Sequence record: NC_054934.1
Length of the DNA: 64,000 nt
Source: Escherichia phage teqskov
Direction: 5' to 3' (one strand)
Shown: positions 22,768-23,596 of the stretch, piece by piece
Numbering within the stretch: the stretch's first letter is position 1
How the letters are laid out: each line of letters begins with the position of its first letter
Position numbers and translations under genes: made by a program
The notes under the pieces: generated by a model
What the model was told of the DNA's origin: nothing
Database searches by the model: none
The model's input: the letters and a program-made list of their open reading frames with translations, nothing else

Positions 22768-22775
22768 TATAAATA
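22768..22775 (+). promoter_or_regulatory. Late promoter (TATAAATA) upstream of rIII
   Basis: TATAAATA immediately after the gene 31 stop, about 120 nt upstream of rIII. Confidence 0.45.
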
Positions 22776-22893
22776 ATAATATGAATTGAGTTTCAATTCT
22801 ATGTGGTAGTCTACAACTGAGAGATCTGTCGAAAGAAGATGAAATTCAGAAGAACGTGACTACCGAGTTTTAATCTCTAACGAGAATTTTTAA

Positions 22894-23142
22894 ATGATTA
22901 AACAATTACAACACGCTCTTGAACTGCAACGAAACGCATGGAATAATGGTCACGAAAACTATGGCGCATCTATTGATGTTGAAGCCGAAGCTCTTGAAAT
23001 CCTGCGTTATTTCAAACATCTGAATCCTGCTCAAACTGCATTAGCTGCTGAGCTTCAGGAAAAAGATGAACTTAAATATGCTAAGCCTCTGGCTTCTGCC
23101 GCACGAAAAGCAGTTCGTCACTTTGTGGTAACACTGAAGTAA
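22894..23142 (+). CDS. rIII: Lysis inhibition accessory protein rIII
   Basis: 82 aa MIKQLQHALELQRNAWNNGHENYGASIDVEAEALEILRYFKHLNPAQTALAAELQEKDELKYAK...; matches T4 rIII. Confidence 0.9.
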   Translation: MIKQLQHALELQRNAWNNGHENYGASIDVEAEALEILRYFKHLNPAQTALAAELQEKDELKYAKPLASAARKAVRHFVVTLK

Positions 23143-23336
23143 TTTATTGGAGAGTCACTGCCTTAGTGTGAAGTTAAAACGAGGAGCCGTCGAACTTTGT
23201 TTTACGGTGTACCTCTTGAATGTTGACGAGGTTTATGGTTATCCTGTCGGTAAATATTCAAAACCTAAGTACCCCTTGAGGGCTTGCGCAGGCAATGCCA
23301 ATAAGTCCTGCATTTTCATTTAAAAGAGAATTTATA

Positions 23337-23513
23337 ATGGCAAAACAAGCTAAAGCAAAGAAAGCAGTTGAAAAGAAAGTTGGTGATTCTAAACGCGCTG
23401 GTTACAAGCGTGGGTCGAACTCTCGTATCAATCAAACTGTTGAGAAGATCATGCGCCGAGCACGTGCGGTTCTTCGAGATGATGCTTCTCGTTTTGGTAA
23501 GCAGAAAGCATAA
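23337..23513 (+). CDS. Hypothetical very basic small protein (58 aa, Lys/Arg-rich)
   Basis: MAKQAKAKKAVEKKVGDSKRAGYKRGSNSRINQTVEKIMRRARAVLRDDASRFGKQKA; start ambiguous (in-frame ATG also at 23295); followed by a strong terminator. Confidence 0.5.
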   Translation: MAKQAKAKKAVEKKVGDSKRAGYKRGSNSRINQTVEKIMRRARAVLRDDASRFGKQKA

Positions 23514-23518
23514 GTTAA

Positions 23519-23542
23519 GGACTCCTTCGGGAGTCCTTTTTT
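23519..23542 (+). terminator. Rho-independent terminator (UUCG tetraloop)
   Basis: GGACTCC-TTCG-GGAGTCC followed by TTTTTT. Confidence 0.75.
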
Positions 23543-23566
23543 ATTTTCCAAAGATTGCACAAAGTT

Positions 23567-23596
23567 GTTTACAGTATGGCTCCTTTGTGATAGTAT
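23567..23596 (+). promoter_or_regulatory. T4-type early promoter
   Basis: GTTTAC, about 18-nt spacer, TAGTAT/TATTAT; downstream leader can pair CTCCTTTGTG with the SD-containing CACAAACAAAGGAG. Confidence 0.45.

Follow-up and report, generated by a model that had tools for sequence, protein, structure and literature searches.

Organisation of the rIII-30.9 region

The question raised by this locus of Escherichia phage teqskov (NC_054934.1) is what fills the long gap that follows gene rIII in the stretch of 64,000 nucleotides (nt) that was analysed here and is referred to as the window. A sequence-only reading of the window had described the gap as a structured non-coding spacer, followed by an open reading frame (ORF) for a tiny basic peptide and a strong terminator, and had proposed a stand-alone small RNA, a nucleic-acid-binding micro-protein, or both. 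It overlooked the main point, which is that the opening 35 nt of the gap are a ToxI repeat unit. This unit (unit 1) is, on the evidence of its sequence, almost certainly homologous to ToxI, the RNA antitoxin of the bacterial type III toxIN systems, which abort infection, and is probably a decoy by which the phage counters this defence, or what is left of such a decoy.

The order of elements on the plus strand is cd, 31.2, 31.1, 31, rIII, spacer, 30.9, terminator, an early-promoter-like site (23568-23596) and 30.8. The rIII-30.9 transcription unit has its distal part at 23143-23548, where a spacer of RNA hairpin modules is followed by gene 30.9 and a strong intrinsic terminator. The spacer (23143-23336, 194 nt) is the longest intergenic gap nearby, since the other gaps measure 41-126 nt in the annotation of phage ime09; the equivalent gap in the T4 reference record AF158101 is 244 nt long and unannotated. 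The ORF-free gap, the 58-aa peptide, an in-frame ATG at 23295 and the UUCG-loop terminator were all found with the coordinates and sequences described earlier. The spacer had also been called GC-rich, and it is so only to a modest degree (40.2%, the window as a whole having 36.1%; the highest value over 200 nt is 44.5%). Over 501 nt the region agrees with Escherichia phage PinkRuby at every position (100%) and with ime09 at more than 99%, and it matches 731 phage records, almost all of them Tequatrovirus. The order rIII, spacer, 30.9 and terminator is kept across T-even genera, and in those examined the region always forms part of the rIII-30.9 transcription unit, with the stop codon of rIII on one side and the ribosome-binding site of 30.9 on the other. 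The two features needed first are the following.

22894..23142, plus strand: rIII coding sequence (lysis-inhibition accessory protein), from the ORF list, a match to phrog_1457 (E 4.7e-44) and annotation as rIII in ime09, SA20RB and T4
23146..23180, plus strand: unit 1, a single orphan ToxI-like (type III antitoxin RNA) unit, AUU-GGAGAGUCACUGCCUUAGUGUGAAGUUAAAA-C, from the bacterial ToxI profile, shared words, plasmid BLAST and covariation

A ToxI-like repeat immediately downstream of rIII

Unit 1 starts 3 nt past the rIII stop codon and lies in sense orientation. BLAST comparison of the spacer gave a modular picture, in which the first ~80 nt were ~85% identical to an unannotated stretch in the tRNA array of Phapecoctavirus. 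A pattern scan of IMG/VR was too loose by itself (120 loci, mostly chance matches, which were removed with nhmmer), and the filtered result led to a locus, L055, where the first ~36 nt occur four times in tandem. In this locus a sigma-70 promoter, the four tandem repeats and a terminator precede an ORF for a ToxN toxin (Pfam PF13958, ToxN_toxin, E 2.5e-37), and because the tandem array lies ahead of a ToxN gene, the repeat derived from the spacer was identified as ToxI.

When positions 23140-23235 (96 nt) were compared by BLAST with 7.3 Gb of plasmid sequence, 16 records were found, 15 of which match unit 1. All 15 matches fall in unannotated stretches, and the ones examined were toxI arrays upstream of ToxN genes; in the plasmid loci L128-L130 and L148-L152, tandem repeats follow a promoter and are succeeded by a terminator and by a gene that carries the annotation ToxN/AbiQ toxin. 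The ToxI diversity set was drawn from plasmid BLAST because a ToxN-based scan of genome contigs gave 2 loci only. The repeats were as follows.

pECA1039 and small E. coli and Salmonella plasmids: AGGTGATTTGCTACCTTTAAGTGCAGCTAGAAATTC
Enterobacter cloacae P1: AGGTGATACGCTACCAYTAAGTGCGAACTYGAAAATC
Large E. coli, Pantoea and Serratia plasmids: GGAGAGTCRCTRCCGTTAAGTGYGAAGTTAAAAAAATC
Vibrio: GGAGAGTCACTACCGTTAAGTGTGAAACTAAAATTATC

Judged by these repeats, unit 1 belongs to the allele of the large plasmids of E. coli, Pantoea and Serratia. It reads ATT-GGAGAGTCACTGCC-TT-AGTGTGAAGTTAAAA-C, which is the large-plasmid type minus two loop bases and with a shorter A-run; relative to the Pantoea repeat, these are two 1-nt loop deletions and a reduced A-run. 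Words of 14 and 15 nt recur unchanged in ToxI arrays on plasmids of Pantoea and E. coli, and the exact 14-mer and 15-mer shared with the repeat of Pantoea pBH6cv2_D occur once each in the window, where 5e-4 and 1e-4 occurrences would be expected by chance. A profile made from 11 bacterial ToxI repeats only, with which the whole window was searched on both strands (128 kb), gave positions 23149-23179 as its sole significant match (E 2e-5), the next best having an E value of 1.1.

The bacterial ToxI arrays (pECA1039; pRHB38-C24_2; pBH6cv2_D; Enterobacter cloacae P1) resemble unit 1 in having a unit of ~36-38 nt, the stems of an H-type pseudoknot and a 5' tail AU(U/C) immediately before GG. Unlike them, the window contains neither a tandem array nor a toxN gene (tblastn with four ToxN lineages, best E 0.58), and no dedicated promoter or terminator for unit 1 was found in the window scan; hairpins and gene 30.9 follow the unit instead.

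Conservation of the pseudoknot

Pairs of the H-type pseudoknot (stems 2-4:13-15 and 9-11:23-25) were counted in an alignment of 11 bacterial and 15 phage units. The numbering from -3 to 32 was reconstructed and agrees with all positions named in PMC3475682, and the list of pairs was taken from covariation and from the statement on U9:A25 in that paper, rather than from a crystal structure. The stem U9-C11:G23-A25 was paired in 26/26 sequences, with covariation: one of its pairs is AU in 13 units and GC in the other 13, with zero one-sided changes, and another is CG, UA or GC. The covariation score was reached by 0 of 500 shuffles, and slid registers dropped to 25-66% paired. G2:C15 and G3:C14 are invariant among the 26 units, and position 4:13 is unpaired in every GGAGAG-type unit, bacterial ones included. 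U9:A25 is the pair that was reported as compensatory (U9C/A25G) in the pseudo-ToxI of phage PhiTE (PMC3475682). In the window the first stem corresponds to 23149-50:23161-62 and the second to 23156-58:23168-70.

The covariance models of Rfam found nothing within 23143-23336 even at E <= 10. Applied to the region, four relatives and three genuine toxIN loci, they gave only sub-threshold matches driven by terminators. Because the genuine toxI arrays are missed as well, there being no usable ToxI model in Rfam, this silence is uninformative with regard to ToxI. ARAGORN detected no tRNA or tmRNA in the spacer or in its relatives.

Alleles of the unit among T-even phages

The T-even genera differ in the ToxI type that they carry at the rIII-30.9 locus.

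Type a, in the window and ime09: GGAGAGTCACT...GAAGTTAAAAC
Type b, in T4, T6, SHFML-11 and S16: GGAGATTCACT...GAGCTAAA(A)TC
Type c, in VR20, VR25 and ~30 related records: AGGTGATTCGCT...GGCTAGAAAATC, the pECA1039 type with U9C and A25G
No unit: JS10 and QL01-type phages

The window allele runs GGAGAGUCACU...GAAGUUAAAA and that of T4, T6 and S16 GGAGAUUCACU...GAGCUAAAU, while the VR20-type unit, AGGUGAUUCGCU...GGCUAGAAAAU, is the pECA1039 ToxI with both compensatory changes. Each of the three ToxI types goes with a ToxN lineage of its own, and these lineages share 36-42% identity. Klebsiella phage Mineola (Jiaodavirus) and Enterobacter phage Q7622 (Kanagawavirus) have a unit at another point of the same spacer; that of Mineola is of the pECA1039 type and that of Q7622 of the Enterobacter cloacae plasmid type. 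Some phage alleles match the host, an Enterobacter phage having the Enterobacter plasmid type.

Between the window and T4, rIII and 30.9 are 99.4-99.6% identical, whereas the unit differs at ~6/32 nt, mainly in its 3' tail. Because the flanking genes are nearly identical and the unit is not, the difference looks like allele replacement and not like drift. The presence of different ToxI types and of two insertion points at one locus implies repeated acquisition or replacement.

Orphan units in other phages

A second IMG/VR scan, combined with the bacterial-only profile, revealed at least 54 orphan units in 48 phage or viral loci of IMG/VR and GenBank (L158-L235), and no ToxN was present in any locus sequence examined. 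Intergenic positions, relative to ORFs of at least 70 aa, accounted for 48 of the 54 units, and among the 39 with two defined neighbours, 26 were co-oriented with both ORFs and 1 was opposite to both. The contigs, of 4-437 kb, come from many unrelated phages; a unit was also found in Klebsiella phage pKMKP103 (H316). The same profile recovered the PhiTE locus (142,349 bp, with its pseudo-ToxI of 1.5 repeats), which served as positive control (L165). Tandem expansions in phages were limited to PhiTE, to heterotypic pairs in L016 and L159, and to genuine toxIN loci.

Two arrangements of these units were observed in addition. L016, a jumbo-phage contig (IMGVR_UViG_3300011202_000010, 341 kb), has an ORF-free stretch of 830 nt on the minus strand (~1430-2260) with four different ToxI-like units that resemble different bacterial ToxI types, a copy of unit 2 (the hairpin that follows unit 1 in the window, described below) and four 25-nt repeats, TGGCTTATTYTTTRGATACTTCTAC, which are possibly promoters. 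In Phapecoctavirus and phi92-like phages, units 1 and 2 lie within the tRNA array, between tRNA-Gln and tRNA-Pro and on the same strand (L004:2000-2080, L005:2000-2081 and L026:5208-5316, as well as phi92); the ToxI-like unit there is similar to the repeat with which the E. coli plasmid arrays begin (AAAGGTGAGTCACTACC). A cloverleaf reading of units 1 and 2 was rejected because ARAGORN was negative, though the Phapecoctavirus copy sits in a tRNA array.

A possible role against ToxN

As described in PMC3475682, PMC5086642 and PMC10853763, ToxN cleaves the ToxI precursor at AA^AU, each 36-nt pseudoknot spans two ToxN monomers and blocks their active sites, and the shut-off of host transcription by a phage depletes the labile ToxI, so that ToxN is freed. 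PhiTE escapes by expression of an expanded pseudo-ToxI (PMC3475682). By analogy with that pseudo-ToxI, the most likely role of unit 1 in present-day phages would be that of an antitoxin mimic, made by the phage and targeting ToxN, and we would put the probability of this role at roughly one half.

In the proposed mechanism the unit would be transcribed within the rIII-30.9 message during host transcription shut-off, while the labile host ToxI decays; we infer transcription in infection from the sense orientation and from the absence, in the terminator scan, of a terminator between rIII and unit 1. The unit would then adopt the ToxI-like pseudoknot and fill the RNA-binding grooves of the cognate ToxN endoribonuclease, and with ToxN so occupied the cleavage of phage mRNA would be delayed or damped. 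Unit 2, as a stable flanking hairpin, may shield the unit from exonucleases. Alternatively or additionally, the single unit could be a homology anchor for expanding or capturing a full antitoxin array.

The closest known case is the PhiTE pseudo-ToxI (PMC3475682; Blower et al. 2012, PLoS Genet), which is likewise a phage-encoded, non-coding and intergenic ToxI-like sequence without toxN. The pairs of the ToxI pseudoknot are kept in both, and the VR20-type allele even has the U9C+A25G compensatory pair. However, PhiTE is an rV5-like myovirus whose 1.5 repeats expand for escape, whereas the T-even phages (Straboviridae) have one full unit, without expansion in 687 records, at a fixed locus downstream of rIII, with conserved companion hairpins and in several alleles that match different ToxN lineages. 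The phage pseudo-ToxI is as a kind known from PhiTE, and the T-even unit is a new and far more widespread member with a different architecture, namely a single unit, a fixed locus, multiple lineage-matched alleles and companion hairpins. In the literature, the coverage of which was incomplete, no ToxI-like unit was reported in T4 or other T-even phages.

Two other kinds of phage factor can be compared. TifA (PMC9391042, PMC10853763) is also a T-even counter-defence against the same toxin family and is small, basic and RNA-binding; unlike unit 1, an RNA with an inferred role, it is a protein of demonstrated activity whose gene lies in another part of the genome. The product of gene 30.9 is likewise small and basic. 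The orphan antitoxins or mimics (Dmd against RnlA/LsoA; DarG-like enzymes, PMC11825919) are similar in that the phage holds only the antidote half, but they are proteins, whereas unit 1 would be an RNA antidote consisting of a single embedded unit.

Several observations weigh against a ToxN-directed role. The spacer had been described as structured, and only its conserved hairpins, recognised by comparison with relatives, bear this out: folding of the single sequence was at chance level (minimum free energy z = -0.99 on the plus and -1.32 on the minus strand, not significant against shuffled controls), so that RNA structure in the spacer is upheld by the relatives only. The profile search found no second ToxI unit in the window, nor was there one elsewhere in T-even records (687 places in 687 phage records). 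The second loop of the window unit is 2 nt shorter than in the bacterial repeats, and the AA^AU motif at which ToxN cleaves is missing from its 3' tail; the 5' border reads UAAUUUAUU and the 3' border GUUAAAAC, without AAAU. The 3' AAAU is retained in T4, SHFML-11, VR20-type phages and Mineola. T2, T4 and T6 carry a type-b unit despite being strongly restricted by a plasmid-borne E. coli toxIN (PMC9391042), and in the experimental evolution of T4 on toxIN it was tifA that was amplified and not the rIII-30.9 unit (PMC9391042). The spacers of RB69-like (Mosigvirus-type) phages, for example QL01, have no unit 1, yet RB69 is the least restricted. The 1.5 repeats of wild-type PhiTE gave no protection (PMC3475682). 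Finally, the rIII stop codon is only 3-6 nt upstream, so that ribosomes finishing translation of rIII should cover the 5' portion of the unit.

The main rivals of the anti-ToxN role are a relic or recombination anchor and a cis-acting mRNA structure. In the first of these, unit 1 would be a fossil or recombination scar, that is, the decaying remnant of an earlier exchange, illegitimate or homologous, between a T-even phage and a toxIN plasmid, as in the PhiTE-F recombinant, with no present function save perhaps as a ~35-nt homology patch. The invariably single copy, the loop deletions, shortened A-run and lost AAAU of the window allele, and the continued toxIN sensitivity of T2, T4 and T6 would all fit such decay, as would the degenerate units found in L139 (with GCATTAGCG) and in Q7622 (without one G:C pair) and the spacers of JS10 and QL01-type phages, which lack the unit and are otherwise unchanged. 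Nevertheless, the unit is kept in hundreds of genomes and several genera, its pseudoknot stem is intact in all aligned sequences with compensatory changes, it was apparently acquired or replaced repeatedly, its type in the Enterobacter phage is that of the Enterobacter plasmid, and it is co-oriented with transcription in nearly all cases. We regard a relic as unlikely.

Other RNA modules of the spacer

Downstream of unit 1 the spacer consists of further hairpin modules, all on the plus strand.

23181..23215, plus strand: unit 2, a long irregular hairpin, GAGG-a-GCCGU-c-GAAC/GUUU-u-ACGGU-gua-CCUC (short form), from RNAalifold of 12 variants
23223..23251, plus strand: module B1, hairpin GUUGAC-g-AGG / CCU-GUCGGU with the conserved loop UUUAUGGUUAU, from the comparison of genera
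23272..23282, plus strand: module B2, motif CCCCUUGAGGG (a short G-C hairpin) inside the conserved GUACCCCUUGAGGGCUUG, conserved in the genera examined
23288..23321, plus strand: last hairpin (23288-23311), GCAGG(14-nt loop)CCUGC followed by AUUUUCAUUU, adjoining the 30.9 ribosome-binding site upstream

RNAalifold gave unit 2 a structure of 14 pairs, 5 of them with compensatory double changes. T4 and T6 have in unit 2 an additional apical domain of ~48 nt, whose hairpin covaries as well, and unit 2 accompanies unit 1 into Phapecoctavirus, phi92 and Vibrio phages. Module B as a whole (23222-23336) is near-invariant from Tequatrovirus to Gelderlandvirus, and its conservation equals or exceeds that of the flanking genes; identity between the window and S16 is 78.9% in module B, 71.2% in rIII and 74.5% in 30.9. 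Hairpin B1 is near-invariant in Tequatro-, Dhaka- and Gelderlandvirus; its bulge switches strand in T4 (GACGGG/CCUgGUC), and an A-U pair becomes U-G in the window type. B2 is kept in all genera examined, including Mineola, PS2 and Pet-CM3-4, which have an altered module order. The GCAGG...CCTGC hairpin and U-rich run singled out by the sequence-only reading were located at 23288-23321, and the stem covaries (AACUGG/CCAGUU in S16; GGGAGC/GCUCCC in Mineola and PS2). The U-run is variable, JS10 having AUCCUAAUUU. No counterparts of unit 2 or of the B modules were found in plasmids, E. coli genomes or Rfam. A hammerhead-like reading of UGAUGACGAGG... was dismissed by eye, as GAAA is missing after stem II.

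The second main rival relies on these modules. It holds that the spacer, including unit 1, is a structured 3' untranslated region or 5' leader that controls the stability, processing or translation of the rIII and 30.9 message, with hairpins that might stop exonucleases, offer RNase sites or be bound as an operator by gp30.9 or some other RNA-binding protein; the likeness to the ToxI fold would then be recruited for this purpose or a coincidence. The nucleotide conservation of unit 2, B1, B2 and the last hairpin at or above the level of the flanking genes, the covariation of the stems, the position of the last hairpin next to the 30.9 ribosome-binding site in all genera and the conserved order from rIII to the terminator are all consistent with it. 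However, it leaves unexplained why unit 1 matches bacterial ToxI alleles by lineage and host, and why orphan ToxI units occur in 48 unrelated phage loci; units 1 and 2 are also found in the tRNA arrays of unrelated phages, with neither rIII nor 30.9 nearby. We regard a cis-acting element as about as unlikely as a relic.

The proposal that the gap is a stand-alone small RNA gene, with its own promoter and an end at GCAGG...CCUGC and the U-run, would give a trans-acting RNA of ~170 nt. In its favour, both the window and T4 have a hairpin with AUUUUCAUUU after it, the units of L016 lie among 25-nt repeats that might be promoters, and a stable processed fragment of the mRNA would resemble a small RNA. 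Against this, there is no sigma-70-like site in or just upstream of the spacer, nor a promoter-like site between rIII and 30.9, and the T4 late box TATAAATA is absent there. Furthermore, the U-run is unconserved and the terminator scan passes over the last hairpin, unit 1 starts immediately after the rIII stop codon, and no Rfam family was matched. A separate small RNA gene is accordingly very unlikely. The T4 late-promoter box TATAAATA was observed at 22768-22775, in the gap between gene 31 and rIII (22768-22893, 126 nt), which also has the inverted repeat GAATTGA-gtt-TCAATTC at 22784-22800.

Further elements were noticed in the spacers of relatives. In Cronobacter phage Pet-CM3-4 (Karamvirus, L155:736-862) the spacer is 127 nt long, B2 precedes B1 and the ToxI-like unit is absent. 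T6 and VR20-type phages have a hairpin insert of 51-58 nt (TACTATCACGCGTCAG...CGTGGTTGGTA) between unit 2 and module B (L132:~495-545, L136 and L139-L146), where T4 has just TGAAT. Several T-even genera have, as an insertion within the rIII-30.9 spacer, a conserved element of ~150 nt (GGCAAGTGCATGCTACCCCGAGG...AACAGATAAGAG; L133:~520-670, L134, L135, L137, L153, L154 and L156). RNAalifold folded this multi-stem element with 47 pairs, showing 10 compensatory double changes among 5 sequences; it has no Rfam match and was found neither in plasmids nor in E. coli genomes, and it is a candidate new structured phage RNA.

A broader idea would make the spacer a modular 'decoy RNA island', in which unit 1 mimics ToxI and the other modules (unit 2, B1, B2, the 51-58-nt hairpin and the ~150-nt multi-stem element) each mimic or titrate an RNA-binding component of another host defence. 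The modules would be shuffled among phages as cassettes, and the basic gp30.9 would be their RNA partner. We consider this speculative and distinctly improbable. In a weaker version, orphan single-unit mimics of type III antitoxins would be a widespread and unrecognised class of phage counter-defence RNA.

Gene 30.9, the terminator and the coding potential of the spacer

The transcription unit ends with the following two features.

23337..23513, plus strand: gene 30.9, a 58-aa basic micro-protein of phrog_1427 (E 2.3e-31), from the profile match and synteny
23517..23548, plus strand: intrinsic terminator with a 9-bp stem, UUCG loop and U-tract (hairpin 23517-23538), from the terminator scan

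The phrog_1427 match is full-length, and the gene lies after rIII in T4, S16, JS10, Mineola, PS2, Pet-CM3-4 and Q7622. The peptide is basic and conserved in relatives, as tblastn matches were found in 1004 phage records and the homologues form 68 clusters, exclusively from T4-like phages; the invariant core is SKRAxYKRxSNxR...RARxV...FG. Its start had been thought ambiguous between 23295 and 23337. The in-frame ATG at 23295 would give 72 aa, but this ORF is unconserved: in JS10 it is stopped after 8 codons, and S16 has no ATG there. All homologues align from a MAKQ/MAKK start, and because this start is conserved and is preceded by a Shine-Dalgarno-like AAGAGA at ~23324-23329, the start of 30.9 was placed at 23337. 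A historical 97-aa '11.1 kDa' ORF is likewise unconserved.

The AlphaFold 2 model of gp30.9 has a disordered basic N-terminus and one helix (19-53), with a mean predicted local distance difference test score of 69, and searches of Pfam and PDB gave no match. Nucleic-acid binding by gp30.9 is a plausible guess from its composition alone. Several phage records and one UniRef entry label this protein '1,4-alpha-glucan (glycogen) branching enzyme, GH-13-type', which on a 58-aa protein is evidently a propagated annotation error.

Coding by the spacer itself was also considered, in the form of a small protein from a 58-aa ORF with a TTG start (23147-23323) or of the gp30.9 extension from 23295. Both are annotated as 'hypothetical protein' by the pipelines used for SA20RB and PinkRuby, clusters of 72 and 97 aa exist, and the frame D/VDEVYGYPV..ACAGN..KSC is open in the window and in JS10. 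Nevertheless, three indels in T4 throw this frame, the only ORF of the spacer, out of register and a stop interrupts it in S16, although the nucleotide sequence is preserved; two of the T4 indels affect hairpin B1, one on each strand. Moreover, the TTG start has no Shine-Dalgarno sequence, Pfam gave no match, and the extension fails in JS10 and S16 as described above. Because of the frame-breaking indels and stops, the small-ORF reading was rejected as hardly credible, and the earlier description of the spacer as non-coding holds.

The terminator, AAGGACTCC-TTCG-GGAGTCCTT followed by TTTTATTTT, has 9 pairs (5 of them G-C) and the U-tract TTTTTTATTTT. The terminator scan found 3 terminator-like sites where 0.7 would be expected, and a rho-independent terminator is annotated at this place in SA20RB and Mineola, confirming that the UUCG-loop structure is genuine. 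The sub-threshold Rfam matches at 23469-23552 (Atu_C8, 32.5 bits with a gathering threshold of 50; Phe_leader, 24.8 bits with one of 55) are due to the terminator hairpin and its U-tract.

Implications for T-even phages

The region carries a warning for annotation, as gene callers put spurious ORFs on the spacer and gp30.9 is mislabelled. How toxIN senses and aborts infection has been studied mainly with T4 and its relatives as the experimental model, and the sole counter-defence known there is the protein TifA; an unannotated, conserved ToxI-like unit in the genome of T4 itself offers a testable second route of interference. The alleles track ToxI/ToxN lineages and in one case the host genus, which would allow prediction of the toxIN variants that a phage has met. 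Finally, the ~48 other loci suggest that the pseudo-ToxI of PhiTE is no curiosity and may be an instance of a common feature of phages.

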